From the NCBI GenBank assembly GCA_026395995.1, contig JAPLXQ010000011.1:4210-68209 (forward strand): a stretch of DNA of 64,000 nt, read 5' to 3'. Positions 9,524 through 61,531 of the stretch are shown piece by piece. The number at the start of each line of letters is the position of its first letter. The stretch's first letter is position 1. The notes below the pieces were generated by a model that was given only the letters and a program-made list of their open reading frames with translations, had not been told where the DNA came from and did no database searches. The stretch is from Candidatus Nomurabacteria bacterium. Lineage in GTDB: Bacteria; Patescibacteriota; Minisyncoccia; Phycocordibacterales; UBA9973. The position numbers were made by a program, and so were the translations under genes.

Positions 9524-9612
9524 TCCTCCTCCCCTTAGCTAAGGGGAGGAATGAGGTGGGGTGCTGAATTTTGCACCCCCTCCCAACCTCCCCCTTGGCA
9601 AAGGGGGATGGA
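9524..9612. repeat. GC-rich triple-hairpin intergenic repeat (copy A)
   Basis: cctcctccccttagctaaggggagga / ggtggggtgctgaattttgcacccctcc / cctcccccttggcaaagggggatgg; about 90% identical to 39288-39380. Confidence 0.85.
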
Positions 9613-9630
9613 AACTCAAAACTTTAAAAG

Positions 9631-9660
9631 AGCCCCGCCTTACGGCGGGGCTCTTTTCTT
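9631..9660 (+). terminator. rho-independent terminator after fusA
   Basis: agagccccgccttacggcggggctcttttctt hairpin plus T-run. Confidence 0.65.
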
Positions 9661-9745
9661 GCATTTATTTTTGATAGTGATATCATTTAATTAAACAATA
9701 GTCCCTTGTAATATTCATAGGGAAAACCTAAAATCATTAAAAACA

Positions 9746-10009
9746 ATGATAAAACTTGGAATTAATTGGACAGCACTACTCGATGAGTACTGGTATCTGT
9801 CATTTGTTCTCGTTGGTGCACTTCTTTTGATTATTGTAATTAGATATTTCGTTAAAAAAAGAAATAAACTAAAAGCAGTTTCTTTATCAAAACAAAAAAC
9901 AACAGAACAACAAAAAAACGCTTCTGGAAACGGAAAGCACACAAATCACGATCCATATTTTTCTCGTATTAAAAAACGAGCAAAGGTTCGTGCAGTAGTA
10001 ACAAAATAA
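9746..10009 (+). CDS. small membrane protein (hypothetical)
   Basis: Single TM helix followed by a basic tail. Confidence 0.35.
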   Translation: MIKLGINWTALLDEYWYLSFVLVGALLLIIVIRYFVKKRNKLKAVSLSKQKTTEQQKNASGNGKHTNHDPYFSRIKKRAKVRAVVTK

Positions 10010-10096
10010 AAAAGTCCGGCAGATTGCTGGACTTTTTTGCTTTTTAATTTAATGTGTGTTATTCTGTTTTTAGATAAATTTAAACAGATTTTTGAT

Positions 10097-10345
10097 ATGC
10101 AAAAAAAAAGATTAATTACAATTGTATTTGCTGCACTTTTTTATGGTACAGTTTTTATTTTAATAATTACTGGTGTGATAAATAATTCACAAAAACCAGA
10201 GAAATTAGAACCAAAAGACTATCCAAAAGTAACCTTCATTAATACTTATTCTGATTTGTATTTTGACCCTGAGGATAACACCAAAGAAGGTGTAATTTTT
10301 TTAAAACATCATAGTGATGACTGCATAGAATGCATTTATTATTAA
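10097..10345 (+). CDS. small membrane protein (hypothetical)
   Basis: Start at MQKKRLITIV; one TM helix; C-terminal Cys/His cluster. Confidence 0.35.
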   Translation: MQKKRLITIVFAALFYGTVFILIITGVINNSQKPEKLEPKDYPKVTFINTYSDLYFDPEDNTKEGVIFLKHHSDDCIECIYY

Positions 10346-10441
10346 AAATTAAAACCCCGATCACTCGGGGATTTTTTATTGACAAAATTCAGAAAAACTA
10401 TAGTATTCTACTTAGAATAAATAGTACTAAAAAAATAAATT

Positions 10442-10981
10442 ATGAACAAACCAGTTAGTGGCTTTAATCTTGATGCAATGCTTCAAGAAGGATTGAAAAA
10501 AGATAAACACATAGTACTTCCATTGAATTTGAACTACAAAGAGATATCTGAGGGTATTCGTCAGTTTAATATTGGTGATGAAAAAAGGCTATTTGCTTTG
10601 AATAAAAGTATCATTACTAAAACAAAAGATTTGGTATTGGCTTACCGGATGAATTTAGCTCTTTATCTAGAGCATGGTGATGATGGGATTAATGCATATG
10701 AAAAAACGATTGATTACATAAAAGAAGTGGCTCCTAATGTTCCCGTGTTGTCTGTTATGGATTTAGCTGGAAGTGATATAAAAGAAGGTATTTCAATTCA
10801 GCAAATCATTAAAGACGATTTAAAGAACGAATGTAAAACTTTTGTAATTAATGCCCCGGATGAGATAGTTTTTATTCAAAAGGTAGAAGACTTCGCCTTG
10901 GTAATCAGAAAAAAATTGGAAAAACTAAATGATAAAATTATGGAAACTAAAAAGCAGGTTTTGGGATCGATGATTTCATAA
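10442..10981 (+). CDS. hypothetical protein
   Basis: 179 aa ORF followed by a terminator hairpin (agcgggact..gtcccgctttt). Confidence 0.45.
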   Translation: MNKPVSGFNLDAMLQEGLKKDKHIVLPLNLNYKEISEGIRQFNIGDEKRLFALNKSIITKTKDLVLAYRMNLALYLEHGDDGINAYEKTIDYIKEVAPNVPVLSVMDLAGSDIKEGISIQQIIKDDLKNECKTFVINAPDEIVFIQKVEDFALVIRKKLEKLNDKIMETKKQVLGSMIS

Positions 10982-11019
10982 AATAAAAAAAGCGGGACTT
11001 ATTGTCCCGCTTTTACTAT

Positions 11020-12024
11020 TTATTTATATAAATTTTCTTTGTCCCCGAATAATTCCCAAGCTTTTCTTCTGACACTTCCAATAGCCCATGGTTTCAAGAA
11101 TTCAATCGAGTCCAGAGAAATACTATTAGCCCCAGCATGATGTAATGCCTCGACATCATTTTTATTGAGCGGTCCTCCACTATTGATATGTTTATGAAAA
11201 CCAGCATCACGTAAACCTTTGATGTATGTTAAAATTAACGGTAAAATTATTTTACCTGAAAGTCCTCCCAAATCAAGAATATGTAAACTCTTTTCTATTA
11301 GAGGGGAACCATCTGGATATAATTTTTTCCAATTAATTTCATTTGGTAAATTACCAAATTTAACCATACTTGAGATGGTAATAGCGTAGCAATTTGAATG
11401 CTTTTCAAATTGTATGACATTTTCAATCGGCATTTCTACTGAAATTTTTACAATAATTGGAATCCCTTTTTCTACTAAAGGTGTACACATATCTAGTATC
11501 TTTAACATTGTTTGTAGTTCTCTTGATTTATACTCAGTAAAATCAAGTTGTAATCCAATTTGGGCTTTAAAATCATTCTTTGATTTTAATAGCATTGTAA
11601 CGAATTCATCAAATTCCGATAATCTTTTTTCTTCAGTATTTATACTAGAAATAAAGGATATTTGAAAAGGATCAGTCCTCTCATGTAGCTGATAAGAAGA
11701 CAGGACAGTATTTGCTCCTGGACCATCCGGATTCAGGTCTTTTAATACACATTGATTTTTTCTATCTATGTGTATATTTTTCCTGAAAAATTTTTTTGGC
11801 ATCAAATCGTCTTTTAGTTTGATATTACTTTTATGTGCTTCCAATGTCGTTGTTTTAGAAACAAAAGTTAAGCCATCGAAATTAATACCGAGTTTGTCTA
11901 AAATTTTATGATATGGCCAACCTTGACCATAAAAATTTAATAGTCCTGCCTCACCCCAAATAACTTCAAAAGGTACGCCATGTATATTCACTTTTCGGTG
12001 AAAATCTTTTATTCTTTTTTTCAT
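11020..12024 (-). CDS. dihydroorotate dehydrogenase-like TIM-barrel protein (PyrD family, divergent)
   Basis: 'IWGEAGLLNFYGQG' and C-terminal 'LGGLSGKIILPL' resemble the DHODH substrate and FMN-phosphate loops. Confidence 0.45.
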   Translation of the reverse strand: MKKRIKDFHRKVNIHGVPFEVIWGEAGLLNFYGQGWPYHKILDKLGINFDGLTFVSKTTTLEAHKSNIKLKDDLMPKKFFRKNIHIDRKNQCVLKDLNPDGPGANTVLSSYQLHERTDPFQISFISSINTEEKRLSEFDEFVTMLLKSKNDFKAQIGLQLDFTEYKSRELQTMLKILDMCTPLVEKGIPIIVKISVEMPIENVIQFEKHSNCYAITISSMVKFGNLPNEINWKKLYPDGSPLIEKSLHILDLGGLSGKIILPLILTYIKGLRDAGFHKHINSGGPLNKNDVEALHHAGANSISLDSIEFLKPWAIGSVRRKAWELFGDKENLYK

Positions 12025-12140
12025 ATTTTTTTTACAATTTACAATTTATATTTTTTCTACCAGTACCTTAACACATTTATGCATGTTTGACAAATTTCCT
12101 CTTTTGACAAAGAGGTTTTTTGTAGATAGACTAAAGAAAA

Positions 12141-13076
12141 TTGAAACTTAAAAAGAAAAAGATTATGAATGTTACAGGACTTAAAATAGGCGGGTCTAAT
12201 TTAAAAGACCCAGAATCAGTAAAAAATATTGTAAATATATTAAAAGAGAGAAGTGCAGATAGGCCTTATTTTGTAGTTGTTTCTGCTATGTATGGAATGA
12301 CCAGACTTTTGGAAAAAATTCATAATACAAATATTGTAAGAATTAAAACTGGAAAAAAGATTGAAATGGTTCAACATTACAATGAATTTATCGGTTTTCA
12401 TGAGAACATGGTAAATGTTTTATTTGAAGGTAAAAACAACAAAGCAAGCTTTAGGAAATTGATTGAAGATTTTGATGAGACTATTATGACGGCAGGCTTC
12501 TTTTCAGAAGCTTTAGTAAAAGCAGAGATTTTATCTTTCGGAGAACGATTCTCTTCTTTAATTTTGAGTAATTATTTGAATTCTCAAAATATTAACAATA
12601 CTTTGATTAGAGCTTTTGATTTTATGGTTACGAATAATGATTTTGACAATTCAATCGTTTGTTTTGAACAAACTAATCAGAACATAGTAAATCAGTTTAC
12701 AAATTTAATGCTTAAAAATAGTGTGGTAATAACTGAAGGATTTATAGGAAGGACCAAAATCAACGGCAATCCATTTTACACTAATCCTGGTGGTTGGAAT
12801 GGATCAGATTATACCGCCAAAATAATAGCTGACGCCTTGGATGCTAAGAAACTTGTCTTTTATAAAGATACTTTTCTAATGGACATAAATCCAAATGCAC
12901 CAGGTGGCGAAAAGGCCAAAAAGATTGAAACTATTTCTTATGAGAATTTAAGGATGAAGATTTTGAATAAATCTGCTGGAACGATTTTACACGAAAAGGT
13001 TCTTTTAGGTAAAAGAATTCCAATAGAAATTCGCTCCTCTTTAAGTCCAAAAGAAGAGGGAACTAAGGTTTTTTAG
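12141..13076 (+). CDS. amino-acid kinase family protein (aspartokinase-like)
   Basis: 'LKIGGSNL...FVVVSAMYGMTRLL' matches the aspartokinase/carbamate kinase N-terminal fold. Confidence 0.5.
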   Translation: MKLKKKKIMNVTGLKIGGSNLKDPESVKNIVNILKERSADRPYFVVVSAMYGMTRLLEKIHNTNIVRIKTGKKIEMVQHYNEFIGFHENMVNVLFEGKNNKASFRKLIEDFDETIMTAGFFSEALVKAEILSFGERFSSLILSNYLNSQNINNTLIRAFDFMVTNNDFDNSIVCFEQTNQNIVNQFTNLMLKNSVVITEGFIGRTKINGNPFYTNPGGWNGSDYTAKIIADALDAKKLVFYKDTFLMDINPNAPGGEKAKKIETISYENLRMKILNKSAGTILHEKVLLGKRIPIEIRSSLSPKEEGTKVF

Positions 13077-13181
13077 ATAGTATTTTTGCCCAGCTTCGCA
13101 ATGCGAAACTGGGCATTTTTTTTGACATATTTATATAAACATGTTACTTTTAAATTAAACAAACCAAAATTTATTTGAAAA

Positions 13182-14555
13182 ATGAATATAAAGATTACTG
13201 AAGAAAAAAAGACATTCATTCGAATGTTGTTATATTTAATGGTTCCCAAAAAAGTGATTGCAAAAATGCTTGATGTGAATGAAGTTACTATTGGAAAACA
13301 TTCAAAGCTAACAAAGGCTGAGATGAATGATATGGGACCTCAACCAGAAGGACAGGAATTGAGACTTGAAGTATTCAAAATGTATGTTTGGAGTCAAACA
13401 GATATTTTAGAAATGAGTATGGTGTTTGGAGTTTCTATAGCAGAAATTGAATCAATACAAAAAGCAATTTTTGATTATTTGAAAATGCAACGCTGTGTTT
13501 CATATTGTGAAGGTATTATCACTTCAGTTTTTCTGTATCAGAAAATTCAATTTGAATCGACTATATCGGTCGAAGAAAAAAAGCTGGTTGAAAAACTATT
13601 TGAACATCAAACATATGAATCTATATATTTGAAAGAAAAAAAACCAGGTAAAAAACTTTTCTTTGATTGTTGTATGCGGATACACAAGGAGCAAGAGTTA
13701 TTGATGCCAACTAAGTATAATATTTATCGTCCGGAAGAGTGTTTGACAAAAGTAATAGATTCATTTGTGAATGAAGAACGGAGTAAAGTAGGAGTATACA
13801 TCTCAAAAAGATTTGTTGATTTTATTAAATCTTTTTTTGCTACTTTAAGTAAAAAGGAACAAGCAAGTTTGTATAGTCTTGCGGAGTTGCCTGAGTTTGT
13901 AGAGGCATTTACTGAATACAAAAATTTAAAACCGAATGCTATTCAATCAAAACGTAAAACAGCATTGATACTATTACGCGGTAGAATAAAGCATTATTTA
14001 AAATTGGGAGAAACTATTATTCCAGAAGGAAAAAAACATTTAGATGACATTTTGCATCACCTAGAACTTGTTCAGAAAAAAGAGTCGGAATTACTTAACC
14101 TGAAAAAAGACTTTGAAAAATTTCAACTTACAGCTATAAGGTTGGCTAAGTTCTCAGCAGAGAATATGCCTATTGAAAAAGTAGATGATACAATTGTCGC
14201 TTCTATTCAAAAAGTAGATCCTGAGCTTTTAAAATTGATAAAAACTATAGAGCCAGTTCAACTTGTCCCGGTGGGTGTGGAAGTAATACAAAGTGAGCAA
14301 ATGAAGTTTTATCTGACAAATATAATGGATATGGATTTATCAGTTAGGTTATATACCTGTTTATCATATGCTGAAATAGAGTATGGTTGGCAAATATTAA
14401 CCATTTCTAAACATGATTTCCTTAAGTTCAGAAACTTTGGTAAAAAATCTATGATTGAATTAGAAGAATTAATTCATAATAAAAAACTTGTTTTTAATTC
14501 TATTGATCCATCACTTCAAAGGTATTTGGAAGATAAGATAATAAAAAAGAAATAA
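13182..14555 (+). CDS. hypothetical protein with C-terminal RNA polymerase alpha-CTD-like (HhH) domain
   Basis: C-terminus 'DLSVRLYTCLSYAEIEYGWQILTISKHDFLKFRNFGKKSMIELEEL' matches the alphaCTD consensus (LSVRxxNCLK..I..GDL...TE.ELLK..N.GKKSL.EI). The N-terminus is not alpha-NTD-like. Confidence 0.45.
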   Translation: MNIKITEEKKTFIRMLLYLMVPKKVIAKMLDVNEVTIGKHSKLTKAEMNDMGPQPEGQELRLEVFKMYVWSQTDILEMSMVFGVSIAEIESIQKAIFDYLKMQRCVSYCEGIITSVFLYQKIQFESTISVEEKKLVEKLFEHQTYESIYLKEKKPGKKLFFDCCMRIHKEQELLMPTKYNIYRPEECLTKVIDSFVNEERSKVGVYISKRFVDFIKSFFATLSKKEQASLYSLAELPEFVEAFTEYKNLKPNAIQSKRKTALILLRGRIKHYLKLGETIIPEGKKHLDDILHHLELVQKKESELLNLKKDFEKFQLTAIRLAKFSAENMPIEKVDDTIVASIQKVDPELLKLIKTIEPVQLVPVGVEVIQSEQMKFYLTNIMDMDLSVRLYTCLSYAEIEYGWQILTISKHDFLKFRNFGKKSMIELEELIHNKKLVFNSIDPSLQRYLEDKIIKKK

Positions 14556-14650
14556 TGGTTAGGATTCGCCCCGCGCTTGAAAAGCGCGGGGCTTTTATGT
14601 TGTATTAACCCTCTCCTTAACAAGGAGAGGGCAGGGTGAGGTGAATCCAT

Positions 14651-14682
14651 TTGACTTTATTTTTCAATCTGCTAGTATAGGA
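14651..14682 (+). promoter_or_regulatory. promoter TTGACT-N17-TAGTAT with conserved TCTGCTAGTATAGG box (upstream of tuf)
   Basis: The same TCTGCTAGTATAGG box recurs at 27429-27442 (upstream of rpsN) and 39410-39423 (upstream of ndk). Confidence 0.5.
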
Positions 14683-14810
14683 ACATAACTGCACTTTTGG
14701 CAGTTTTTGTTTGCAATTTTTATAAAATTTATTAATTTAATTAAAGTTAGTGGTCTAAATTTAGCAACTTCTCGTATGTTAAGTTTTAACTAGTAACTAA
14801 AAATAAGTAT

Positions 14811-16007
14811 ATGGCAACAGAAGAATTTAAAAGAGACAAGCCACACGTAAACGTTGGTACAATCGGTCACGTTGACCACGGAAAGACTACTTTAACAGCA
14901 GCTATCTTGAACGTTCTTAATTTGAACGGTAAAACTGTTAAAATGAAGGGTGTTGGAGATATCGACAATGCTCCTGAAGAAAAAGCTCGTGGAATCACCA
15001 TTAACATTTCTCACAATGAGTACTCTACAGATGCTCGTCACTATGCTCACATTGATGCCCCAGGACACGCCGACTACATCAAAAACATGATCACAGGTGC
15101 TGCTCAAATGGACGGTGCTATCCTTGTCGTAGCTGCTACTGATGGTGCTATGCCACAAACACGTGAACACGTTCTTCTTGCAAAACAAGTTGGTGTTCCA
15201 AAGATTATCGTTTTCTTAAACAAATGTGACATGGTTGATGACAAAGACATGATTGACATGGTTGAAGAAGAAATCCGTGAATTGCTTACAAAACAAGGTT
15301 TTGATGGTGCAAACGCTCCTGTCATCCGTGGATCAGCTCTAAAAGGACTTGAAGCTACAGATGCTACAGACCCTTGGGCAATGAAGATCATGGATCTTGC
15401 AAACGCTCTTGATACATATATCCCAGTTCCAGAACGAGATACAGCAAAACCTTTCCTAATGGCTATTGAAGATATCTTCTCTATCGAAGGACGTGGAACA
15501 GTTGTAACTGGAAAAATCGAAAGAGGAATAGTAAAAGTAGGTGAAGACGTTGAAATTGTTGGTATTAAAGCTACACAAAAATCAACAGTCACTGGTATTG
15601 AAATGTTCAACAAGAACCTTCAAGAAGGTATGGCTGGAGACAACGCTGGTATCTTGCTCCGTGGATTAAAGAAAGATGATATTACTCGTGGACAAGTTCT
15701 TGCAAAACCAGGAACAGTGACTCCTCATGATAACTTTACTTGTGAAGTTTACATCTTGAAAAAAGAAGAAGGTGGACGTCATACTCCATTCTTCAAAGGT
15801 TACAAGCCACAATTCTACATCCGTACTACAGACGTTACAGGAGAAGTTGAATTAGCAGAAGGAGTAGAAATGGTTATGCCTGGAGATACAGCAAAATTCA
15901 CAGTGAAATTGGTTTCACCAGTCGCACTTGAAGATCAACAAAGATTTGCTATCCGTGAAGGAGGAAAGACTGTCGGTGCCGGAGTCGTTACAAAAATTAT
16001 TGCTTAA
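14811..16007 (+). CDS. tuf: elongation factor Tu
   Basis: [18 protein letters not shown] and NKCD motifs; 398 aa. Confidence 0.98.
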
Positions 16008-16018
16008 CCTTTAAATTT

Positions 16019-16417
16019 ATGGCTGAAGAAGAAACAACAACTAAAAAAGTAAAAAAAGTTACCACACCAAAAGTGAGTAAAGCTTCTTCTAAAGTTAAAG
16101 AAGAAGGAAAAGAAGTAGTATTACGTATCCGAGTTCGTGCTTACGAAAGTAAGATTCTTGATACTTCTGTAAAACAAATTATTGATACAGCTATGCGTTA
16201 TGATGCAAAGATAGTCGGTCCTGTACCACTACCTACTGAAATCAAAAAATATACAGTCAACCGTGCCTCTTTCGTTTACAAAAACACACGAGAACAATTC
16301 GAAATGAGAGTACACAAGAGAGTGATTGATATTTTAAACCCAAATGCAAAGACCATCGAAGCTTTGACAAACCTTTCACTTCCATCCGGAGTTGAAATAG
16401 ATGTAAAAATGATTTAG
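16019..16417 (+). CDS. rpsJ: 30S ribosomal protein S10 (with Lys-rich N-terminal extension)
   Basis: S10 core 'LRIRVRAYESKILD...' preceded by an about 35 aa K-rich extension. Confidence 0.9.
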   Translation: MAEEETTTKKVKKVTTPKVSKASSKVKEEGKEVVLRIRVRAYESKILDTSVKQIIDTAMRYDAKIVGPVPLPTEIKKYTVNRASFVYKNTREQFEMRVHKRVIDILNPNAKTIEALTNLSLPSGVEIDVKMI

Positions 16418-16429
16418 CCCTAAAATTTT

Positions 16430-17044
16430 ATGAAATTTATACTTGGAACAAAAGTTAATATGACTGAATACTTCTCCGAAAACGGAGTGGTAATTCCAGT
16501 AACAATAATCTCAGCTGGACCTGTAAAAGTGGTAACCATCAAAGATAAGACTAAAGATGGCTACAATGCTGTACAAGTCGGTTTTGGAGAACAAAAAGAA
16601 AGTCGTGTTAATAAAGCTCAAAAAGGACAAATGAAAGGGGACTTTTTCAAAGTTATGAAAGAGTTTCGCTTGAAAAATGATGACAAATTTGAAGGAAATG
16701 TAGGAGACATGCTAGATGTATCTAGTTTTGAAATTGGGGATATGCTCCAAGTCTCAGGAACTTCAAAAGGTAAAGGTTTCCAAGGTGTTGTAAAACGCCA
16801 TGGCTTCAAAGGAGGTCCAAGATCTCACGGTCAGAAACACTCTGAACGTGAACCAGGATCTATCGGAGGAGGTCTACGAACACACGTGCCAAAAGGAATG
16901 AGAATGGCCGGCCGTATGGGATCTGACAGAATAACTTACAAAAATTTGAAAGTTGTTTTCGTTGATAAAGAAAACAATGTAATGCTTATCAAAGGAGCAA
17001 TCCCAGGAAAGCGTGGAAGTTTAGTAGAAATTACAGCTCGATAA
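16430..17044 (+). CDS. rplC: 50S ribosomal protein L3
   Basis: Operon position and L3 motifs (GTSKGKGFQGVVKRHGF). Confidence 0.95.
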   Translation: MKFILGTKVNMTEYFSENGVVIPVTIISAGPVKVVTIKDKTKDGYNAVQVGFGEQKESRVNKAQKGQMKGDFFKVMKEFRLKNDDKFEGNVGDMLDVSSFEIGDMLQVSGTSKGKGFQGVVKRHGFKGGPRSHGQKHSEREPGSIGGGLRTHVPKGMRMAGRMGSDRITYKNLKVVFVDKENNVMLIKGAIPGKRGSLVEITAR

Positions 17045-17054
17045 TAATAAATTT

Positions 17055-17723
17055 ATGTTAAAAGCAACAATATACAATCAAAAAGGAGCCGAAGCTGGAA
17101 GTATCGAACTACCAGAGAAAGTTTTTGGTATGAAATGGAAGACAGACTTGGTTCACCAAGTAGTCGAAAGTATTCGTGGCAACAAACGTGCTGGTACTGC
17201 TGATACCAAAGGCCGTGGAGAAGTTCGTGGAGGAGGAAAGAAACCTTGGAAACAAAAAGGTACTGGTCAAGCTCGTCACGGTTCTACACGTAGTCCTATT
17301 TGGGTTGGTGGAGGTGTGACTCATGGTCCTCTTGCTGAAAAGAATTACAAGAAAAAAATCAACAAGAAAATGAGAGTAGGAGCATTGTATGCTGTTCTTT
17401 CAAAGAAATTAAAAGATGGAGAAATAATCTTTGTCGATTCGTTGGTAATGAAAGACATCAAGACAAAGTCTGCTGTAGATGTAATGGCAAATCTTGCTAA
17501 AGCTACAGGATTTAAAATGATTGCTTCTTCAAAGAAACCAAAAGTATTAGTCGCTATTGCTGCTAAAGATGAAAAGATACAAAAGAGTTTCAGAAATATT
17601 CCTTCTCTTGAATTAGCAATGATAAACAATATCAATCCAATGCAAGTGCTTAATTATAAATATCTTTTGATTGAAAACCCAGAATCTGCAGTGAAGTTTT
17701 TATTAACTCGCTCAGGAAAATAA
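17055..17723 (+). CDS. rplD: 50S ribosomal protein L4
   Basis: Operon position and L4 motif (KPWKQKGTGQARHGS). Confidence 0.95.
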   Translation: MLKATIYNQKGAEAGSIELPEKVFGMKWKTDLVHQVVESIRGNKRAGTADTKGRGEVRGGGKKPWKQKGTGQARHGSTRSPIWVGGGVTHGPLAEKNYKKKINKKMRVGALYAVLSKKLKDGEIIFVDSLVMKDIKTKSAVDVMANLAKATGFKMIASSKKPKVLVAIAAKDEKIQKSFRNIPSLELAMINNINPMQVLNYKYLLIENPESAVKFLLTRSGK

Positions 17724-17727
17724 TTTT

Positions 17728-18003
17728 ATGGCAGACATTAAAACAATTAAAAAACCTAGAATCACAGAAAAAGTAGCCCTTCTCGCCGAGAAGAATATTT
17801 ATACTTTCGAAGTTTCAGCAAATGCTACAAAGAATGAAATAAGAAAGGATATCGAAGCTATTTATAAAATCAAACCAGTCAAAGTAAATATCGTTCACAT
17901 TCCAAAAAAGACAGTGATAATCCGTGGAAAGAAAGGTGTTAAAAATGGTGGTAAGAAAGCAATGGTATATTTAAAAAAAGGTGATAAGATCGATTTTGCA
18001 TAG
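17728..18003 (+). CDS. rplW: 50S ribosomal protein L23
   Basis: 91 aa, L23-like sequence, operon position. Confidence 0.9.
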   Translation: MADIKTIKKPRITEKVALLAEKNIYTFEVSANATKNEIRKDIEAIYKIKPVKVNIVHIPKKTVIIRGKKGVKNGGKKAMVYLKKGDKIDFA

Positions 18004-18035
18004 TATAAAAGTTCACTACAAGTAATAAAAATATT

Positions 18036-18875
18036 ATGAAGACATATAAACCAACAAGTAAATCAAGAAGACAAATGACAAACATTGACTACCGCAATGT
18101 TTTGACTAAAACTACACCTGAGAAATCTTTGACTCACGGCTTCAAAAGAGCTGTAGGAAGAAATAATCTCGGACGTATTACTACTCGTCATAAAGGAGCA
18201 GGTCATAAGAGACTTTTCCGTGATGTCGATTTCTTATATAACAAAAAAGATATTCCTGCAAAAATCACAAGTATCGAATATGATCCAAACCGTTCTTCAT
18301 TTATCGGTCTTGCTGTTTACAAAGATGGAGAAAAGAGATATGTCATCTTACCTCAATCAGTAAAGCCAGGAGATATGTTTGTCGTGTCTGAAAAAGCTGA
18401 ATTAAAACCAGGAAACAGACTCATGTTGAAAAACATTCCAGTCGGAACATTCGTTTACAATGTGGAAATGAAATCAGGATCTGGAGCCAAGATTGCTCGT
18501 TCTGCTGGAATTTTCGCACAAGTTGTAGCTAATGCTGACGGATACACAAATGTCAAAATGCCATCATCTGAAGTTCGTAAAGTTTCAGAACTCGCTTGGG
18601 CTTGTGTCGGTTCTGTCTCAAATGAAGAACATCACCTCGAGAACTACGGTAAGGCTGGACGTTCACGATGGAAGGGTATTAGACCAACTGTCCGCGGTAC
18701 TGCAATGAACGCTGTAGACCACCCATACGGAGGTGGAGAAGGCCGACAAGGACGTGGAACAAAGAGACCTAAAACATTGTGGGGTAAGGTTACAGGAGGA
18801 CGCAAGACAAGAACTCCAAAGAAATACTCAAATGTCTTCATCGTAAGTCGTAGAAAAACAGGTAAAAATAAGTAA
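18036..18875 (+). CDS. rplB: 50S ribosomal protein L2
   Basis: 279 aa with canonical L2 motifs (GGGEGRQGRG...). Confidence 0.97.
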   Translation: MKTYKPTSKSRRQMTNIDYRNVLTKTTPEKSLTHGFKRAVGRNNLGRITTRHKGAGHKRLFRDVDFLYNKKDIPAKITSIEYDPNRSSFIGLAVYKDGEKRYVILPQSVKPGDMFVVSEKAELKPGNRLMLKNIPVGTFVYNVEMKSGSGAKIARSAGIFAQVVANADGYTNVKMPSSEVRKVSELAWACVGSVSNEEHHLENYGKAGRSRWKGIRPTVRGTAMNAVDHPYGGGEGRQGRGTKRPKTLWGKVTGGRKTRTPKKYSNVFIVSRRKTGKNK

Positions 18876-18960
18876 TTTTGTAAAGTCCTAGAAAGACTGC
18901 CTGCCCGCCATCGCTACGCTCAGGCGTTAGCGGGCGGGGAAAGAACAAATAATTTTAAAG

Positions 18961-18990
18961 CAAAAAATCCCCATTATGGGGATTTTTTGC
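18961..18990 (+). terminator. rho-independent terminator (aaaaaatccccattatggggattttttg)
   Basis: Near-identical to the terminator after rpsG at 4757-4785; precedes an inserted island. Confidence 0.6.
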
Positions 18991-19023
18991 TTTTTGATCC
19001 TTATTTTACAAGGCTTTTAAACT

Positions 19024-19052
19024 TGACTTTTCAAACTATATATGCTATACTT
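19024..19052 (+). promoter_or_regulatory. promoter TTGACTTTT-N-TGCTATACTT
   Basis: -35 TTGACT and extended -10 TGCTATACT; family members at 4788, 20177 and 21042. Confidence 0.55.
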
Positions 19053-19057
19053 TATAT

Positions 19058-19128
19058 AGTTTAAGGTTCGTTGAAAAAAGTTTTGATTGGTGACAAGAAG
19101 TCCTTTTGGGATTTGTTGTCACCAATAA
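19058..19128 (+). promoter_or_regulatory. conserved about 70 nt 5' leader element with hairpin (ttggtgacaa...ttgtcaccaa), copy 1
   Basis: Identical 70 nt at 21077-21147, both directly downstream of family promoters. The six-frame track translates both as 'MKKVLIGDKKSFWDLLSPIK', which is probably spurious. Confidence 0.5.
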
Positions 19129-19139
19129 AAACAATAGAT

Positions 19140-19502
19140 ATGACAAATTCAGCAGTTACAACAGTAGTTTCGTTTAATTTTTTTGATTTTTTAAAATCAA
19201 TTTCTAGATGGTATAAAAACCGTATAGGCAATAAAAAAGGTTTTGGTTGTTGCCCTAATTGTGGTGATAGCTGGAATTGGAAAAGTAGTATCGGTGTTGA
19301 GTATGAAAAACACTATTTTTTTTTTTTTTTTTTTATTTCACCCTCAGTAAGTATTTGCAGCGAATGTTTAACTTCCGCAAAATTTGATTACCAAAGAATT
19401 GAAAAACATTTGGAGTCAGGTACTTGGGAAAAAGAAAACATTGCGAAAGCAATAACCGCCTTAAAAGAATTTGAAAAAAACAAAAAATTAACTAAAAACT
19501 AA
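19140..19502 (+). CDS. hypothetical Cys-rich small protein containing a T20 homopolymer tract
   Basis: CPNCG ... CSECL zinc-ribbon-like halves separated by the FFFFFF translation of a 20 nt poly-T run (19315-19334). Coding status is uncertain. Confidence 0.3.
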   Translation: MTNSAVTTVVSFNFFDFLKSISRWYKNRIGNKKGFGCCPNCGDSWNWKSSIGVEYEKHYFFFFFFISPSVSICSECLTSAKFDYQRIEKHLESGTWEKENIAKAITALKEFEKNKKLTKN

Positions 19503-19508
19503 ATAGAA

Positions 19509-20054
19509 ATGAAAAAAATTCTAAATTTTATTTTAAAAATGATTGCTGGTCTTACTACTGGATGGATTATTGGATCAACTATTTTAGGGGTTATGCACTA
19601 CAATGCAGAAGCTTCCTTGAAAGAAAAAACAGATTCCTTAAATTATTCTGAAGCTATTACTTTAAGTAGTTTCTCAAAAATTATAGAGAATCTTGATTTA
19701 TCAGCAAAGATAGATGATTCTTTAGGTCTTCTAAATTTAAGTCCAGCAGCACTTAAGGCTGAAGAAAAGAGAGACAAAAGTCATGATGATGTCCTTTTAA
19801 GTAAGCGTAAGGCTTGCATTGACACATGTGTTTTTTATCAAAAATTACTTGAAAAACAGATCCCGAGTACTGAATTTTTAAAAACAGAGTATCAGGCTAA
19901 ATTAAAAAGTGCTGATTGGAAGTTCGCGGCAGTGTCTCACTATTCTTTGTGGCTTTATGATAAAGTTGCAAAACTTTGGCTGCCTGAAAGAGTAAAAGTT
20001 CTAACTCCAATTGAGATAATGTCAGACAATAGTGTAAAAACCACTAAAGTTTAG
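19509..20054 (+). CDS. membrane-anchored hypothetical protein
   Basis: N-terminal TM helix (ILKMIAGLTTGWIIGSTILGV); no known motifs. Confidence 0.45.
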   Translation: MKKILNFILKMIAGLTTGWIIGSTILGVMHYNAEASLKEKTDSLNYSEAITLSSFSKIIENLDLSAKIDDSLGLLNLSPAALKAEEKRDKSHDDVLLSKRKACIDTCVFYQKLLEKQIPSTEFLKTEYQAKLKSADWKFAAVSHYSLWLYDKVAKLWLPERVKVLTPIEIMSDNSVKTTKV

Positions 20055-20176
20055 TATTATTCTTGTTTAGTTATATACCCCGTTCGTTGATTCGAATGGG
20101 GTATTTTATTTATATATAGTTATCTATTTACCCAATCGCCCTAATATCTATTACTTTTAACTCGAGAGCGACGTGG

Positions 20177-20205
20177 TTGACTTTTATATATTGATATGCT
20201 ATACT
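20177..20205 (+). promoter_or_regulatory. promoter TTGACTTTT-N-TGCTATACTT
   Basis: Family consensus upstream of the lipoprotein gene. Confidence 0.55.
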
Positions 20206-20256
20206 TTTTACATAGTTAATTGATAAAATAAATATAAACCAAAAATCTAAAAGCAA

Positions 20257-20940
20257 ATGAAAAAAATGTTTTCTATTACCGTTGCGATGTTATTCTTCGC
20301 TGTATTATTTAATTCTTGTGGTGAAAGTCAGTCTGGCCAAAGAGCAAAAGCTCGAAGAGCTAAAGCTGACAGTATTGCTACCGCACAACAACAACCGGTT
20401 ATTACCCCGGAGCCTGAAAAACCGGAACCTGCACCTGTGCCGGAAAAAGATGAATTTGTCTTCACCCCGACTGCAATTGCAGCCACTCCTGTGCAGGAAA
20501 ATCTAAAAGATAAATGTGGGGAGGGTCAATATTCTTGCCATACATTTTCTGTTGACTTTGTGTTAACAGATTCAACTGGAATGAAGTACTTTTTTTCGAT
20601 ATCTGAAAATGCCTCAAACGAAGTATCTAAAGAAGAAGTAACTTCTGGTGGAGAAGGAATAGGTTCTGATTATGATCAGGAGCATATGAAACTTGCTAAA
20701 AAAACTTATGCCGAAATGACAAGTCCAAATTTTGATTTTAAAAATTTCAAATTTGTTTATTACAAAAATTCTGGGATGTTGACGATTACTAAAATCATAC
20801 CAAATTCCGGTAAGAAAATTGGCAAAGTTGAAATTCTGGATGGTAAAGAAGAAAAACTTTATTCTGCCTCTTGCAGGGTAACACCAGCAGAGCAGAAGCT
20901 GTACAATCTTCAAAGCTATTCAGCTCTCGCTTCGAAGTAA
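20257..20940 (+). CDS. lipoprotein (hypothetical)
   Basis: Signal peptide with lipobox LFNSC; Pro/Glu-rich linker. Confidence 0.55.
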   Translation: MKKMFSITVAMLFFAVLFNSCGESQSGQRAKARRAKADSIATAQQQPVITPEPEKPEPAPVPEKDEFVFTPTAIAATPVQENLKDKCGEGQYSCHTFSVDFVLTDSTGMKYFFSISENASNEVSKEEVTSGGEGIGSDYDQEHMKLAKKTYAEMTSPNFDFKNFKFVYYKNSGMLTITKIIPNSGKKIGKVEILDGKEEKLYSASCRVTPAEQKLYNLQSYSALASK

Positions 20941-21041
20941 ATTTTTTAGTTTAAGTACCAGTCACCATTCTCGAGATTCGAGGATGGTGATTTTTTATTA
21001 AATACAACCCCTAAATCCCCTTATCAGGGGACTTTAAATGC

Positions 21042-21070
21042 TTGACTTTTGACTTTGGTTGTGCTATACT
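21042..21070 (+). promoter_or_regulatory. promoter TTGACTTTT-N-TGCTATACTT
   Basis: Family consensus; precedes leader copy 2. Confidence 0.55.
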
Positions 21071-21076
21071 TAGGAT

Positions 21077-21147
21077 AGTTTAAGGTTCGTTGAAAAAAGT
21101 TTTGATTGGTGACAAGAAGTCCTTTTGGGATTTGTTGTCACCAATTA
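21077..21147 (+). promoter_or_regulatory. conserved about 70 nt 5' leader element, copy 2
   Basis: Identical to 19058-19128. Confidence 0.5.
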
Positions 21148-21161
21148 AATTTAATATATAT

Positions 21162-22007: not shown

Positions 22008-22070
22008 ACGTGAGCCTTAGGTTGTAATATACAACCTAAGGCTTTTTATTTTTTATAGTATAATAATAAT

Positions 22071-22463: not shown

Positions 22464-22598
22464 AATTTCCCCCTCTCTAAAATTTTAATTTTGGAGAGGG
22501 GGCTAGGGGGTGAGGTAGGATTTGCATTTTTTTTGCTTTGTGCTAATATGACTTGTAGCTCACTTCGAGCTTTTTATTTACTCGTTTATATATATTAC

Positions 22599-22943: not shown

Positions 22944-22955
22944 TTTAAATAATAT

Positions 22956-23417: not shown

Positions 23418-23438
23418 TTATAATATACAAATAATAAA

Positions 23439-24559: not shown

Positions 24560-24563
24560 TTAT

Positions 24564-51378: not shown

Positions 51379-51434
51379 ACAACAAAAAAATCCCCGCCAG
51401 CTGGTGGGGATTTTTTTGTTGTTTGCGAATCGAG

Positions 51435-51835
51435 TGGAGATGGGGAGAATTGAACTCCCGTGCAAAAGGGATGTGTAAAGAATTCTACATACGTAGTTTA
51501 CTTATTTGTTTAAATTAAAAAACTATTAAGTATACGAAATATTTTTTAATCGATTTCCTTTATTTTACTCGAGTGTCGGATCAGTCACTCAAACTATCCC
51601 GATAATATTATGCCTCACTCTATCTATCGGAAGTCGATAGAGGAGACACCAGACCGGCCAGTTATGTTAGGCGAGTGCTGGAACAAAAGAGAAGTCAGCC
51701 ATACCGAAGTATGGAGATACGCTTTTGTTTGAAGTCAATTTTGCAATTAACATTTAGACGAATTTTTACGAGATTACGTCAATACTCGGCACGCATCAAT
51801 AGCACATATTCCTCTTGTCTATGCCTTGCATCCCC
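51435..51835 (-). ncRNA. ssrA: tmRNA (SsrA)
   Basis: On the minus strand. 5' GGGGAUGCAAGG... acceptor arm pairs with 3' ...CAUCUCC-A. T-arm is GGGAG-UUCAAUU-CUCCC. UGCCGAG...CUCGUAAAAA PK1-like region. Candidate tag ORF ...GCU GAC UUC UCU UUU GUU CCA GCA CUC GCC UAA (ADFSFVPALA*). Adjacent to smpB. Confidence 0.7.
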
Positions 51836-51872: not shown

Positions 51873-51942
51873 ACCTAACCCTCTCCTTTATAAGGAGAGG
51901 GTGCCTCTACTGAGGCGGGTGAGGTGTGGGCGAGGGGGTCTC
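51873..51942. repeat. GC-rich palindromic repeat (CACCTAACCCTCTCCTTTATAAGGAGAGGG ... GGTGAGGTG ... GGGGG)
   Basis: Family member between smpB and ssrA. Confidence 0.8.
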
Positions 51943-55854: not shown

Positions 55855-55928
55855 CCGCCCTTAGCTCAGTTGGTTAGAGCACAGAGCTTATACCTCTGGG
55901 GTCCATGGTTCGAATCCATGAGGGCGGA
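55855..55928 (+). tRNA. tRNA-Ile (anticodon UAU)
   Basis: Cloverleaf: acceptor CCGCCCT/AGGGCGG, D-arm GCTCAGTTGGTTAGAGC, anticodon stem CAGAG/CTCTG with loop CTTATAC, T-arm CATGG-TTCGAAT-CCATG, discriminator A. Confidence 0.7.
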
Positions 55929-55929
55929 C

Positions 55930-59042: not shown

Positions 59043-59756
59043 ATGAAAATTAGTTTAGTTATTCCTGCATACAATGAAGAAAAATATATTGCCACTTGTT
59101 TAGAAAGTGTATTTAAAAATGCACCCGATTTTTTTTATGAAATAATTGTGATAGATAATGCTAGTACAGATAAGACTAGAGAAGTAGCAGAAAAATTTAA
59201 AGGAGTAAAAGTTATTCATGAAGCACAAAAAGGATTAACTTCTGCTAGGCAAAAAGGACTCGAATCTGCGACAGGAGATTTGATAGCTTATATTGATGCT
59301 GATACAAAAATGCCAAAAGATTGGGGTAAAAAAGTTTTGAAATCTTTTTCTAAAAATCCACAGTTTGTTTGTATTAGTGGCCCATATATTTATCATGATG
59401 TTAAACCATTAAAAAGTTTTTCAGTTTGGTTGTATTGGCATCTTTTTGCTTATCCTGCTTCATTGATTACGGGTTATATGGTTGTGGGTGGTAATTTTAT
59501 AGCAAAAAAAGATGCTCTAGAAAAAATAAGTGGTTTTGATAAGAGCATTGCTTTTTATGGAGAAGATACAGATATCGCAAAGAGATTAAGTAAAATTGGT
59601 AAAGTTAAATTTATACTTGGTTTACCTATGCATACTTCTGCTCGACGTTTTAAAGGTCAGGGGACAGGAAAGACTGCAATCATATATATGTTGAACTTTC
59701 TTTCAGTCGCTTTTAAAGGTAAACCAATATCAAAAGATTATAAAGATATACGTTAG
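59043..59756 (+). CDS. family 2 glycosyltransferase
   Basis: ISLVIPAYNEEKYI...DADT motif. Confidence 0.75.
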   Translation: MKISLVIPAYNEEKYIATCLESVFKNAPDFFYEIIVIDNASTDKTREVAEKFKGVKVIHEAQKGLTSARQKGLESATGDLIAYIDADTKMPKDWGKKVLKSFSKNPQFVCISGPYIYHDVKPLKSFSVWLYWHLFAYPASLITGYMVVGGNFIAKKDALEKISGFDKSIAFYGEDTDIAKRLSKIGKVKFILGLPMHTSARRFKGQGTGKTAIIYMLNFLSVAFKGKPISKDYKDIR

Positions 59757-59782
59757 TTTGATTAAATGGTATTATATAAATA

Positions 59783-60418
59783 ATGCAAAAAATATTTAAT
59801 TCTTATAAGGATAATTTTACAAACAAGGCTTTTCTTATAGAAGTCTTTTTTGGTTTACTGATGCTTGTCGGTAGTATGTTTATCAATTTTTATGCTGGTA
59901 TCTATGCCACAGAAAGAGCTAGTAATTCTGTCACAGATATAATACTTAGTAATCTTCGTACTTTTGATGTAGATGCAATATTTATTTATGGAGGTTTTAT
60001 GATTTTTGTTTGTATTGCTTTGTTTTGTCTGTATGAACCTAAAAAGATTCCATTTATTATAAAATCAATTGCATTCTTTGTTCTGACTCGTTCTGTATTT
60101 GTTAGTCTGACTCATATTGCACCTTTTCCATCTCAAATATCTATTGCTTCTACAAATTTCCTTAACCATTTTATTTTTTCTGGTGATTTATTCTTTTCTG
60201 GTCATACAGGGTTACCATTTTTAATGGCCCTTATCTATTGGAAGCAAGAGTATGTGAGATATTTCTTTTTAGCTATGTCTGTTTTCTTTGGAGCTATAGT
60301 TCTGATGGGGCATTTGCATTACACTATCGATGTACTTTCTGCTTTTTACATAACATATTCTATTTATAATTTGAATAAATATTTCTTCAAAAAAGATTAC
60401 GAATTATTCCACTCATAA
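59783..60418 (+). CDS. integral membrane protein, PAP2-like (possible phosphatase / phosphotransferase)
   Basis: TM-rich; 'FSGHTG' and 'HLHYTIDV' resemble PAP2 C2/C3 motifs. Confidence 0.4.
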   Translation: MQKIFNSYKDNFTNKAFLIEVFFGLLMLVGSMFINFYAGIYATERASNSVTDIILSNLRTFDVDAIFIYGGFMIFVCIALFCLYEPKKIPFIIKSIAFFVLTRSVFVSLTHIAPFPSQISIASTNFLNHFIFSGDLFFSGHTGLPFLMALIYWKQEYVRYFFLAMSVFFGAIVLMGHLHYTIDVLSAFYITYSIYNLNKYFFKKDYELFHS

Positions 60419-60421
60419 TTA

Positions 60422-61063
60422 ATGAAAATAAAAAAACTTGGACATTGCTGTTTAATTATAGAGATAGATGGCAAAAGGATTATGACCGATCCTGGTTCTT
60501 ATACTATTGAAAAACATAATCAAGAAAAGAGTATTGATATTATTTTAATTACTCATGAACACGGAGATCATTATCATTTAGAATCTTTAAAAGAAATTTT
60601 AGTGAATAATCCAGAGGCAACAATTGTTACCAATCAAGGAGTAGGGCAGCTACTTGATGAAGCTGGAATTAAGTATCAAATTTTAGAAAATAAAATTGAA
60701 ACAGAAATTTTAGGAATAGAATTAGAAGCACATGATTGTAGACATGAAGAAATTTATGAAGAAATAGGTCAAGTTCAAAATACTGGATTTTTTATTGGTA
60801 AAAAATTATTTTATCCAGGAGATGCTTTCTATAATCCACAAAAGGTTGTAGAGATTTTAGCATTACCTGTGGCTGGTCCTTGGACAAGAGTTAAAGATGC
60901 TATAAAATACGCACTTGAAATAAAACCAAAAATTTGTTTCCCTGTGCATGACGGGATGATCGATCCTAGTTTTGGTACAGCACATAGAGTTCCTGGTATT
61001 ATTTTACCAAATTTTGGTATTGAATTTAAAAGTTTTGAAGAAAATAAGGAAGAAGAATTTTAA
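60422..61063 (+). CDS. metallo-beta-lactamase fold hydrolase
   Basis: ILITHEHGDHYH motif. Confidence 0.7.
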   Translation: MKIKKLGHCCLIIEIDGKRIMTDPGSYTIEKHNQEKSIDIILITHEHGDHYHLESLKEILVNNPEATIVTNQGVGQLLDEAGIKYQILENKIETEILGIELEAHDCRHEEIYEEIGQVQNTGFFIGKKLFYPGDAFYNPQKVVEILALPVAGPWTRVKDAIKYALEIKPKICFPVHDGMIDPSFGTAHRVPGIILPNFGIEFKSFEENKEEEF

Positions 61064-61067
61064 TTAA

Positions 61068-61105
61068 CCTCACCCCTGACCCCTCTCCTGGAAAGGCGAG
61101 GGGAA
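61068..61105. repeat. GC-rich palindromic repeat (CCTCACCCCTGACCCCTCTCCTGGAAAGGCGAGGGG)
   Basis: Family member. Confidence 0.8.
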
Positions 61106-61114
61106 AATACAAAA

Positions 61115-61519
61115 ATGGCACGAATTGTAAATAGTTTCAATAAAAAAGAAATTCGTCGAGATTTAAGAAAAACACAAACCTCAGAATAAATTTTGTTATG
61201 GTCAAAATTACGCAATAATCAAGTAGAATATAAATGGCGAAGACAAGTGAGTATTGGAAATTATATTGCAGATTTTTATTGCCGAGAAAAATTATTAGTA
61301 GTTGAATTAGATGGTTCACAACATTTAGAAAATAAAGAATACGATATTATTCGTGATAATTTTTTTAAATTTTTAGGAATTAAAACTTTAAGATTTTGGA
61401 ATAGTGAAGTTAATAAAGATATAAATGAAGTAATTAATAAAATTGTGTTTGAATTACATAATCGAAATGAAACCCCCTTCTCCTTTCCAGGAGAAGGGGT
61501 AGGGGATGAGGTTTTGTAG
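61115..61519 (+). pseudogene. DUF559 (Vsr-like endonuclease fold) gene interrupted by an in-frame TAA at 61187-61189
   Basis: 'MARIVNSFNKKEIRRDLRKTQTSE*ILLWSKLRNNQ...IADFYCREKLLVVELDGSQH' is colinear with the DUF559 consensus (ARELRKNQT.AEK.LW..LR....YKFRRQ..IG.YI.DF.C...KL.IELDG..H) across the stop. The 3' end runs into a GC-rich repeat (61484-61522). Confidence 0.6.
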
Positions 61520-61531
61520 TATAATTATCTA

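Follow-up and report, generated by a model that had tools for sequence, protein, structure and literature searches.

The present work concerns a 64-kb stretch of DNA (hereafter the window; ~33% GC) from a Candidatus Nomurabacteria (Patescibacteria) metagenome-assembled genome and a family of short GC-rich repeat units scattered through it. We found that genes of the DUF559 family (named YcjD in Escherichia coli) are specifically and widely bracketed by such units, and that the bracketing units are of matching type. By architecture and sequence, the window units belong to the G/C-rich intrastrand-triplex-motif (TM) class, known in E. coli as BoxC, PIT or TM_ECO. The explanation that we consider best, and hold with moderate confidence, is that the units are selfish triplex-motif repeats and that DUF559 is their cognate nuclease, in a system resembling that of REP repeats and RAYT. 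In open-access papers and bioRxiv no link of DUF559, COG2852 or ycjD to BoxC or triplex repeats was found (publication elsewhere is possible), and the association is apparently unreported.

The unit is asymmetric. It consists of a C-rich arm (CACCTCACCCC), 2–3 nt and a 9–10 bp hairpin (CCCTCTCCT-loop-AGGAGAGGG), that is [C-arm][hairpin], or of the reverse complement of this arrangement, [hairpin][G-arm]. Read on the G strand, the window consensus has the order CCCTCTCCT N3–5 AGGAGAGGG N1–3 GGGTGAGGTG. Departures from this plan are a loop of 15 nt at 22469 and, at 51878, an insert of 15 nt ahead of the arm.

Peptides encoded by a unit, such as ...PHPSPLLKGEGK, ...TSPQPSPGKER and ...TPSPFQEKG, form the C-terminus of at least 100 of the 120 closest DUF559 homologues, these tails being translations in one of three frames. 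To avoid circularity, the tails were trimmed and the cores aligned for a scan of metagenomes, in which loci were chosen without reference to the repeats. With seed patterns representing the catalytic core and the N-terminal helix, 80 loci with a GC content from 28% to 69% were kept. A hairpin with its C-rich strand first (C-first hairpin) was located within 150 nt upstream of DUF559 in 60 of 75 cases and within 150 nt downstream in 57 of 72. Thus 80% of DUF559 ends carry one, compared with 6.6% (9/136) of the ends of other long open reading frames (ORFs) on the same contigs. Upstream of the gene the orientation [hairpin][G-arm] prevailed over the opposite one (37 vs 10), and downstream [C-arm][hairpin] did (30 vs 9); the majority layout, [hairpin][G-arm]-gene-[C-arm][hairpin], is therefore that of two inverted units, a doublet, with the ORF at its centre.

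The units bracketing a gene are of one kind. Upstream and downstream stems match within a locus to a degree reached by none of 5000 permutations, and an exact match between a solo hairpin and the DUF559-proximal stem was found in 45% of cases within a contig and in 4.9% between contigs. Exact identity of the stem 8-mer also rises with the identity of the DUF559 proteins, from 1.5% (proteins below 40% identity) to 37.5% (60–75%) and 83% (above 75%; Mantel test, 0/1000), a co-diversification that is confounded by organismal phylogeny. Among the genome loci collected through the hairpin, only two DUF559 genes were met (L024 of Bacteroidota and L003 of Acinetobacter), lying 16–24 nt from the hairpin. 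In viral contigs DUF559 is rare (12 loci), and about half of these loci are flanked by units.

The window contains 14 units at 12 places, two of which bracket a DUF559 gene. The features, in order of their coordinates, are as follows.

9524–9612, no strand assigned: doublet consisting of hairpin 9527–9550, G-arm GAGGTGGGGTGC, an 8-nt spacer, C-arm GCACCCCCTCC and hairpin 9587–9610.
14609–14646, minus strand: solo unit, [hairpin][G-arm] on the plus strand, just past the canonical terminator 14568–14592 and upstream of tuf.
22469–22520, minus strand: solo unit with a 15-nt loop, CCCCCTCTC...GGAGAGGGGG and then GGGGGTGAGGTA, in the gap between the diacylglycerol kinase gene and rpsS.
25429–25463, plus strand: solo unit, C-arm CACCTCACCCC followed by the hairpin, in the rplN/rplX spacer.
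28715–28749, plus strand: solo unit in the rplF/rplR spacer.
33877–33946, plus strand: unit of subtype CCCCTCCCC between divergent kinase genes, its hairpin standing between a C-arm (left) and a G-rich block (right).
39288–39380, no strand assigned: second doublet, a near copy of 9524–9612, after a TrwB-like gene.
39975–40010, minus strand: solo unit, hairpin followed by G-arm GGGGTGAGGTG, past the ndk terminator.
40490–40525, minus strand: unit of the CCTCCCCC subtype, in frame within a conserved membrane-protein gene (40312–40710).
51873–51942, minus strand: composite unit made of a hairpin, an inserted small hairpin (GCCTC-TACT-GAGGC), G-arm GGGTGAGGTG and a further G-rich block, in the gap between smpB and the tmRNA gene.
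61064–61531, plus strand: whole cassette of 468 nt, unit-DUF559-unit plus a 20-nt tail with the -10-like box TAGTATAAT.
61066–61105, plus strand: left unit of the cassette, C-arm CCTCACCCC followed by the hairpin, beginning 2 nt past the stop codon of a gene with a metallo-beta-lactamase (MBL) fold.
61115–61519, plus strand: DUF559 gene (YcjD-like; predicted Vsr-fold PD-(D/E)XK nuclease), with ATG at 61115 and an in-frame TAA at 61187–61189.
61474–61514, minus strand: right unit of the cassette, hairpin followed by G-arm GGGGATGAGG.

An initial annotation of the window had listed 11 sites, all of which hold sequences as described, and had taken them for one family. The word AGGAGAGGG occurs 11 times in the window vs 0.12 expected, a number reached in 0 of 100 shuffles, and GGGGTGAGGTG with at most one mismatch occurs seven times vs 0.13 expected. 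An independent, composition-blind hairpin detector that requires a C-rich 5' stem found 13 hairpins, each accompanied within 30 nt by an arm, C-rich on the 5' side or G-rich on the 3' side. It added the copy at 40490–40525, which was absent from the initial list; the sole unit that escaped it, owing to its 15-nt loop, was 22469–22520. Aligned with MAFFT, the 14 oriented units share one consensus, CACCTCACCCC-AA-CCCYCYCCT-loop-AGGRGRGGG. Twelve of them are intergenic, one overlaps the 3' end of DUF559 and one lies in frame within a gene; eight show the G version and six the C version on the plus strand. Three stem subtypes coexist (CCCTCTCC, CCCCTCCCC and CCTCCCCC/TCCTCCCC), and in each of them the arm varies along with the stem.

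The family is not confined to the window. A scan of 185,579 species genomes revealed the exact window hairpin in at least 120 genome stretches from many phyla; the matches listed include Cyanobacteria, Patescibacteria, Bacteroidota, Chloroflexota, Armatimonadota, Nitrospirota and Proteobacteria, as well as one Bathyarchaeia contig. Among the 142 matches listed, 94% have the arm when it is loosely defined, and in 85% the strict motif CCTC[AT]CC or GG[AT]GAGG is present. The units are also common in viral contigs, where the arm accompanies 69–76% of the matches listed. In view of the short stems and the simple composition, the copies could be supposed to be unrelated, each a hairpin or terminator of its own, or to have arisen by chance from base composition, and by our own estimate a few tens of chance matches to an 18-base pattern are expected in a 596-Gb database. 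This supposition is refuted by the word enrichment, by the shared consensus and by the presence of the same arm on 85–94% of the exact hairpins listed from other genomes, and none of the units in the range scanned for terminators was called as one (see below); we regard it as virtually eliminated.

Rather than forming a second stem, the arm is a third block that mirrors the hairpin stem, as revealed by comparison of 344 units, collected from the window and from 200 loci, where A was counted as matched by A or T. The G-arm matched the mirror of the G-stem at 0.92 of positions, while a direct repeat and the mirrors of stems from other loci each gave 0.80. The mirror exceeded the direct match in 232 cases and the reverse was true in 25; 193 of the 344 units were perfect mirrors, and the window units scored 0.7–1.0. 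Opposite an A of the stem stood T in 459 cases, A in 326 and some other base in 30. Read in this way, the third-block rule is that of a purine-motif intrastrand triplex (G.GC, A.AT, T.AT), and the single-stranded G strand can, by its sequence, fold into a hairpin with a purine-motif third strand.

These results change the picture given by the initial annotation in several respects. It had treated the outer arm as part of a palindromic stem, which the mirror symmetry does not bear out. A full palindrome with outer arms on both sides is found only at 33877–33946, and elsewhere the units are asymmetric. The supposed triple hairpins at 9524–9612 and 39288–39380 do contain the sequences reported but are in fact doublets, [hairpin][G-arm]-8 nt-[C-arm][hairpin]. 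The first of them, located between fusA and the canonical terminator 9626–9657, shows, without an ORF, the layout of units found around DUF559 genes at other loci.

The assignment of the units to the G/C-rich TM class goes back to a full-text literature search with GGGGTGAGG, which led to Holder et al., 2015 (PMC4666352). The architecture of the window units and their nearly identical blocks CCCTCTCC / GGAGAGGG / GGGTGAGG match the 23 tabulated K-12 copies of TM_ECO, an example of which is CCCTCTCCC-TGTG-GGAGAGGG-CCG-GGGTGAGGG (PMC4666352). The likeness extends to the order of C-stem, 3–6 nt loop, G-stem, short second loop and mirror G-block, and the inverted "palindromic" pairs of E. coli equal the window doublets. 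Like members of that class, the window units are multi-copy, mainly intergenic, present on either strand and variable in presence between related genomes. The strict TM_ECO pattern, CCCTCNCCC N3–6 GGGNGAGGG N3 GGGNGAGGG, is not matched base for base by the window consensus, and we therefore treat these units as closely related to BoxC within the broader G/C-rich TM class. That paper equates TM_ECO with the BoxC repeats of the 1990s and with the PIT elements of the Maher group (PMC4666352). A total of 3610 TM_ECO copies, strictly intergenic and without strand bias, were described from 262 proteobacterial genomes, along with many G/C-rich motifs in cyanobacteria; inverted pairs occur, and DNA around the copies shows raised variability (PMC4666352). 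An isolated TM_ECO strand of E. coli sequence forms a triplex in vitro, as followed by circular dichroism and nuclear magnetic resonance, and the triplex of the motif forms in DNA and not in RNA (PMC4666352).

The window units differ from those described before in several ways. Their host is a ~33% GC member of the Patescibacteria, not a proteobacterium or cyanobacterium; several stem subtypes stand together; one copy lies in frame within a gene; and, whereas no linked mobility gene was reported for TM_ECO (PMC4666352), the window units bracket a nuclease-fold gene. Searches of the whole window against Rfam, by gathering threshold and by E-value, matched no unit, the sole real hits being the tmRNA and one tRNA.

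The DUF559 cassette of the window allows a clean comparison of an occupied and an empty site. In the corresponding loci of two relatives (L340 and L341, RecO 85% and 79% identical) the cassette is absent, and the MBL-fold gene and recO overlap (TTTAATG) or stand 2 nt apart; these empty sites contain neither a unit nor a doublet. The annotated form of the gene, ORF 61193–61519 (108 aa), was recognized as DUF559 (PF04480, 3.3e-28, 98.2 bits vs a cut-off of 20.6). The in-frame TAA removes the first 24 codons, including a conserved N-terminal helix (R..LR...T..E..LW) whose residues are invariant in homologues. Since the true start is the ATG at 61115, followed by the TAA at 61187, the window gene is probably a recent pseudogene. 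As the initial annotation had noticed, a unit supplies its C-terminal codons (the last ~15 come from the right unit), to which it has to be added that there is a unit on each side and not at the 3' end only. In the alignment the cassette units and the solo units form one family. It should be mentioned that the right end of the cassette (61512–61531, TTTTGTAGTATAATTATCTA), directly upstream of recO, holds the good -10-like box TAGTATAAT; by its sequence it could be an insertion-borne promoter restoring expression of recO after its separation from the upstream gene.

A linked RAYT or TnpB-like transposase, the presence of which the initial annotation had proposed to test, was not found: Pfam revealed no RAYT, TnpB-type or DDE transposase among the 57 window ORFs scanned, and the linked gene is the DUF559 nuclease. 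The earlier comparison with REP/BIME-like or MITE-like elements was apt as regards a dispersed family of insertions, but neither a RAYT, among the ORFs scanned, nor a convincing target-site duplication was seen with them, and the named class to which they belong is BoxC/PIT/TM. In two relatives (L201, 541–1218, and L202, 639–1316) a genuine Y1_Tnp gene, IS200/RAYT-like (29.1 bits vs a cut-off of 23), stands between rplB and rpsS, with the hairpin CGCAAGGACGGTCCTTGCG on both of its flanks. This is a classical REP/RAYT-like pair present in the clade of the window and absent from the window itself; ORF 20257–20940, which takes the same position in the window, is unrelated to Y1_Tnp.

Several observations bear on the question of whether the units serve the host. 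Both ribosomal-protein spacers that hold a unit are longer in the window (rplN/rplX 57 nt, rplF/rplR 56 nt) than in the closest relative (RplE 92%), where they measure 10 and 22 nt (gene coordinates only, no DNA). In three further relatives (RplE 81–83%) the rplN/rplX spacer is 27–40 nt long, AT-rich and unit-free, and in two of the three the rplF/rplR spacer is likewise AT-rich and unit-free (8 and 33 nt), that of the third lying beyond the fetched part of its contig. Because the units are missing from the same spacers in relatives, comparison of the sequences identifies them as lineage-specific insertions. No convincing pattern of target-site duplication or TTAA preference was seen at the unit ends. 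The unit at 40490–40525 falls in a loop of variable sequence among the homologues of the membrane-protein gene (959 at E <= 0.001), with no clear net change in length.

Pfam upheld the identities of rplN, rplX, rplF and rplR and thereby the placement of two copies where, as the initial annotation had pointed out, a terminator is not expected. Terminators they are not: a terminator consensus scan of 9001–29000 called 9626–9657 and 14568–14592, next to units, and none of the five units in its range. The tails that follow the units are A-rich instead of bearing a T run, and an identity as intrinsic terminators was rejected. Mimicry of Shine-Dalgarno or anti-Shine-Dalgarno sequences (AGGAGAGGG, CACCTC) was dropped as well, as units of either orientation are found, some of them past terminators or between divergent genes, and as the identical sequence is shared by phyla that differ in their use of Shine-Dalgarno sequences.

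The units might still be host-beneficial RNA or DNA signals maintained by selection, such as mRNA 3'-end stabilisers, processing sites or sites for nucleoid or repair proteins, with an incidental or regulatory adjacency to DUF559. E. coli REPs are known mRNA stabilisers. As RNA, the unit hairpins are predicted to be stable, with -17 to -19 kcal/mol for hairpins and -49 to -54 for doublets (9524–9612: -54, z-score -5.7), two units lie within the ribosomal-protein operon and one between smpB and ssrA. We nevertheless judge this reading to be quite improbable, given the unit-free spacers of close relatives, the mixed orientation of the window units with respect to transcription, with no preference, and the spread of a nearly identical sequence over many phyla, which would not be expected of a host-specific signal. 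In addition, the mirror block obeys the purine triplex rule (T or A opposite A), and a triplex of this kind is formed by DNA but not by RNA (PMC4666352); earlier experiments on E. coli relatives of the units, cited in PMC4666352, had revealed neither promoter nor terminator activity. The favoured reading, part of the explanation held above with moderate confidence, is that the units are not host signals but selfish elements that have inserted into narrow gaps between genes, also within the ribosomal-protein operon.

With respect to the protein, a profile search of solved structures returned only 3hrl (NGO0050, an uncharacterised "endonuclease-like protein"; 1.8e-27). The AlphaFold model of DUF559 (pLDDT 85) matched 3hrl, 3r3p and 1vsr in Foldseek. 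The catalytic domain of the homing endonuclease I-Bth0305I gave a TM-score of 0.67/0.76 and is more distant than 3hrl, as is Vsr. Since the profile found only 3hrl in the PDB, a link to I-Bth0305I or Vsr at the level of sequence was discarded and holds for the fold only; in the literature DUF559, Vsr and I-Bth0305I are placed in one PD-(D/E)XK group. The model thus makes DUF559 a plausible enzyme of the Vsr-fold nuclease family. It also matches several large-subunit proteins of Toxoplasma and Tetrahymena mitoribosomes (probability ~1.0, TM-score to the query 0.55–0.64), a similarity of predicted structure which suggests that Vsr/DUF559-like domains are built into these ribosomes.

That DUF559 is an enzyme acting on the units, and the way in which it would do so, are inferred as follows. 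The autonomous form would consist of two inverted units bracketing a gene for DUF559, a YcjD-like protein with a Vsr fold, and the doublets and solo units would be ORF-less derivatives of such a cassette, so that unit and DUF559 would be related in the same way as REP/REPIN and RAYT. The nuclease would recognize its own type of unit by sequence or by folded structure and nick or cut it, and repair or copying from another unit-bearing locus would spread the units and sometimes the gene too. The third block follows the rule of a purine triplex, a structure that, according to the literature cited, is adopted by DNA but not by RNA, and for this reason a DNA-level substrate is favoured, probably a single strand or an extruded structure.

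Alternatively, DUF559 could be a homing-type endonuclease gene that parasitises the repeats. It would target the centre of a doublet, at the junction of G-arm and C-arm, and copy itself in, while the units would spread by other means (an unlinked transposase, replication slippage or recombination between copies). The ORF-less doublets do have the bracketing arrangement, the position of the ORF being taken by 8 nt (window) or 16 nt (E. coli). Further points in its favour are the fold, which is like that of I-Bth0305I, the clean presence/absence polymorphism of the cassette, the vast excess of units over DUF559 genes and the persistence of units in E. coli lacking ycjD. On the other hand, the only empty site seen (L340, L341) is without a doublet or unit, which means that the cassette came with its own units, and no other candidate for mobilising them was found among the 57 window ORFs scanned with Pfam or near the E. 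coli copies (PMC4666352). We therefore regard a homing gene as unlikely, although less so than a host signal.

E. coli offers an independent case of the same association. In K-12, ycjD (DUF559) is located between sapF and fabI, its stop codon lies inside a C-first hairpin (CCCCCTCGC-cctaaga-GCGAGGGGG), and copy #9 of TM_ECO in the list of Holder et al. is ~165 nt downstream. A remnant of a second DUF559 3' end was revealed between ycjD and this copy (L204; K-12, 1351040–1351406), reading ...ETVLENIRQGLNRPS vs ...ETVLENILQELNRRSPSP in ycjD; its sequence suggests past turnover of cassettes at the ycjD locus. Of 5426 complete E. coli genomes, 3375 contain the ycjD region, and the remainder have the eefRABCD operon in its place. 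In a spread sample of chromosomes, a query of ycjD with the TM found 12–27 matches where ycjD was present and 1–18 where it was absent (1–4 in ST131-like strains, ~12 in O157). These numbers fit the published counts of 29 TM copies in strain 55989 vs 1 in IHE3034 (PMC4666352). The comparison of TM copy number with the presence of ycjD is confounded by phylogroup and suggestive only.

A number of observations weigh against the explanation by selfish repeats with a cognate DUF559 nuclease. The window gene has an in-frame stop, and the window copies cannot be ascribed to it as it stands. Its units are arranged as [C-arm][hairpin]-gene-[hairpin][G-arm], opposite to the prevailing layout, and the orientation of units around DUF559 is generally not fixed, since other layouts occur. 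The junctions of the cassette show no visible target-site duplication. A DUF559 gene is distant from most units, being present at only 2 of the 120 genome loci and at none of the 120 viral loci, and E. coli O157, which lacks ycjD, still has its ~12 TM copies. The phylogenetic confounding of protein and unit co-diversification has been mentioned above. We know of no biochemical activity of a DUF559 protein on these repeats, and none was found in the open-access papers and bioRxiv. Finally, Holder et al. detected no triplex in duplex DNA or in vivo and saw no mobility genes near the E. coli copies (PMC4666352).

Comparison with known systems helps to place the proposed one. REP/REPIN repeats are likewise short GC-rich intergenic palindromes that occur as singlets and inverted doublets; in both cases repeats bracket the gene of a small enzyme, there are many repeats per gene, and the repeats are of a type that agrees with the lineage of the linked gene (here DUF559) and with the copies dispersed in the genome. 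The bracketed gene differs, being here that of a putative PD-(D/E)XK Vsr-fold nuclease and not of an HUH Y1 transposase. The units, moreover, have a mirror third block that is absent from REPs, and the genuine Y1_Tnp of L201 and L202 has distinct hairpins of its own, both lacking in the window.

Free-standing homing endonuclease genes such as that of I-Bth0305I share with DUF559 the class of nuclease fold and the appearance of a compact ORF as an indel between tightly packed genes. In contrast to them, DUF559 has no intron or intein context and is bracketed by a multi-copy repeat instead of lying in a single conserved target gene; similarity of sequence is undetectable by profile. MITEs resemble the doublets in that the latter look like ORF-less derivatives keeping the ends of a longer gene-bearing element, but there is no DDE transposase among the window ORFs scanned and no target-site duplication, and the units also exist as halves. 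The unit at 40490–40525, in frame within a conserved gene and at a variable loop, recalls the Rickettsia palindromic elements. These elements are longer and AT-richer than the present units and have no linked nuclease gene.

The repeats themselves are of a known kind, and their presence in Patescibacteria, the ribosomal-protein operon included, only extends the host range. BoxC/PIT/triplex motifs have, however, been catalogued since the 1990s, and by the thousand since 2015, without an enzyme, a mechanism of mobility or a function, and DUF559 is a very widespread nuclease-fold family without an assigned role. As the association is strong and specific and reaches from Patescibacteria to E. coli K-12, the relation of YcjD to BoxC is directly testable in the latter. 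More tentatively, and with an inclination slightly to the side of doubt, it can be hypothesized that DUF559 is the long-missing nuclease of BoxC/PIT/triplex repeats in a pan-bacterial selfish system, found also in phage contigs and at least one archaeal contig, in which a DNA hairpin with a third strand is recognized. If true, this would give a function to a large domain of unknown function and a mechanism to a repeat family that has been enigmatic for 30 years. It would also add to REP/RAYT a second, mechanistically different class of repeats with a domesticated or selfish enzyme, and would account for the genomic instability reported around triplex motifs.

Some further features of the window should be mentioned. 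The ORF beside the copy at 51873 is SmpB according to Pfam, and its identification as DUF559 was rejected. The composite unit separates smpB from the tmRNA gene (51434–51835, minus strand), the predicted tag of which is unusually long (AKLTSNKSVSPYFGMADFSFVPALA). A tRNA-Ile gene (55855–55929, plus strand) has the anticodon TAT (UAU), an uncommon mode of reading AUA in bacteria. Past rplB (18899–18940) lies a GC-rich hairpin of another kind, GCCTGCCCGCCATCGCTACGCTCAGGCGTTAGCGGGCGGGG, which resembles one nested between the G-arm and the start of DUF559 in a metagenome locus (L133, ~2940–2985); hairpins of this type may be a second small element inserting into or beside units.

The ribosomal-protein operon of the window is broken by several non-ribosomal genes. 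Two ORFs without an assigned function, inserted between rplB and rpsS, have at their 5' ends palindromes with arms of 22–24 nt (TTTGATTGGTGACAAGAAGTCC/GGATTTGTTGTCACCAAT; 19080–19132 and 21101–21149). A promoter-like TTGACT-17-TATACT box preceded by TG stands upstream of both of these ORFs and at two further sites, the four positions being 19023, 20177, 21042 and 26443 (with TATCAT at 26443).

Finally, a reverse-transcriptase-like ORF was revealed at 44424–45104, with an RVT_1 score of 28.8 bits, just below the cut-off of 29.6, and a G9 run (44458–44471). It is flanked by near-identical perfect palindromes with 19-nt arms (...AAATACATAGGT/ACCTATGTATTT...) at 42728–42768 and 45493–45533, and together with them may represent a retroelement such as a diversity-generating retroelement or a retron.

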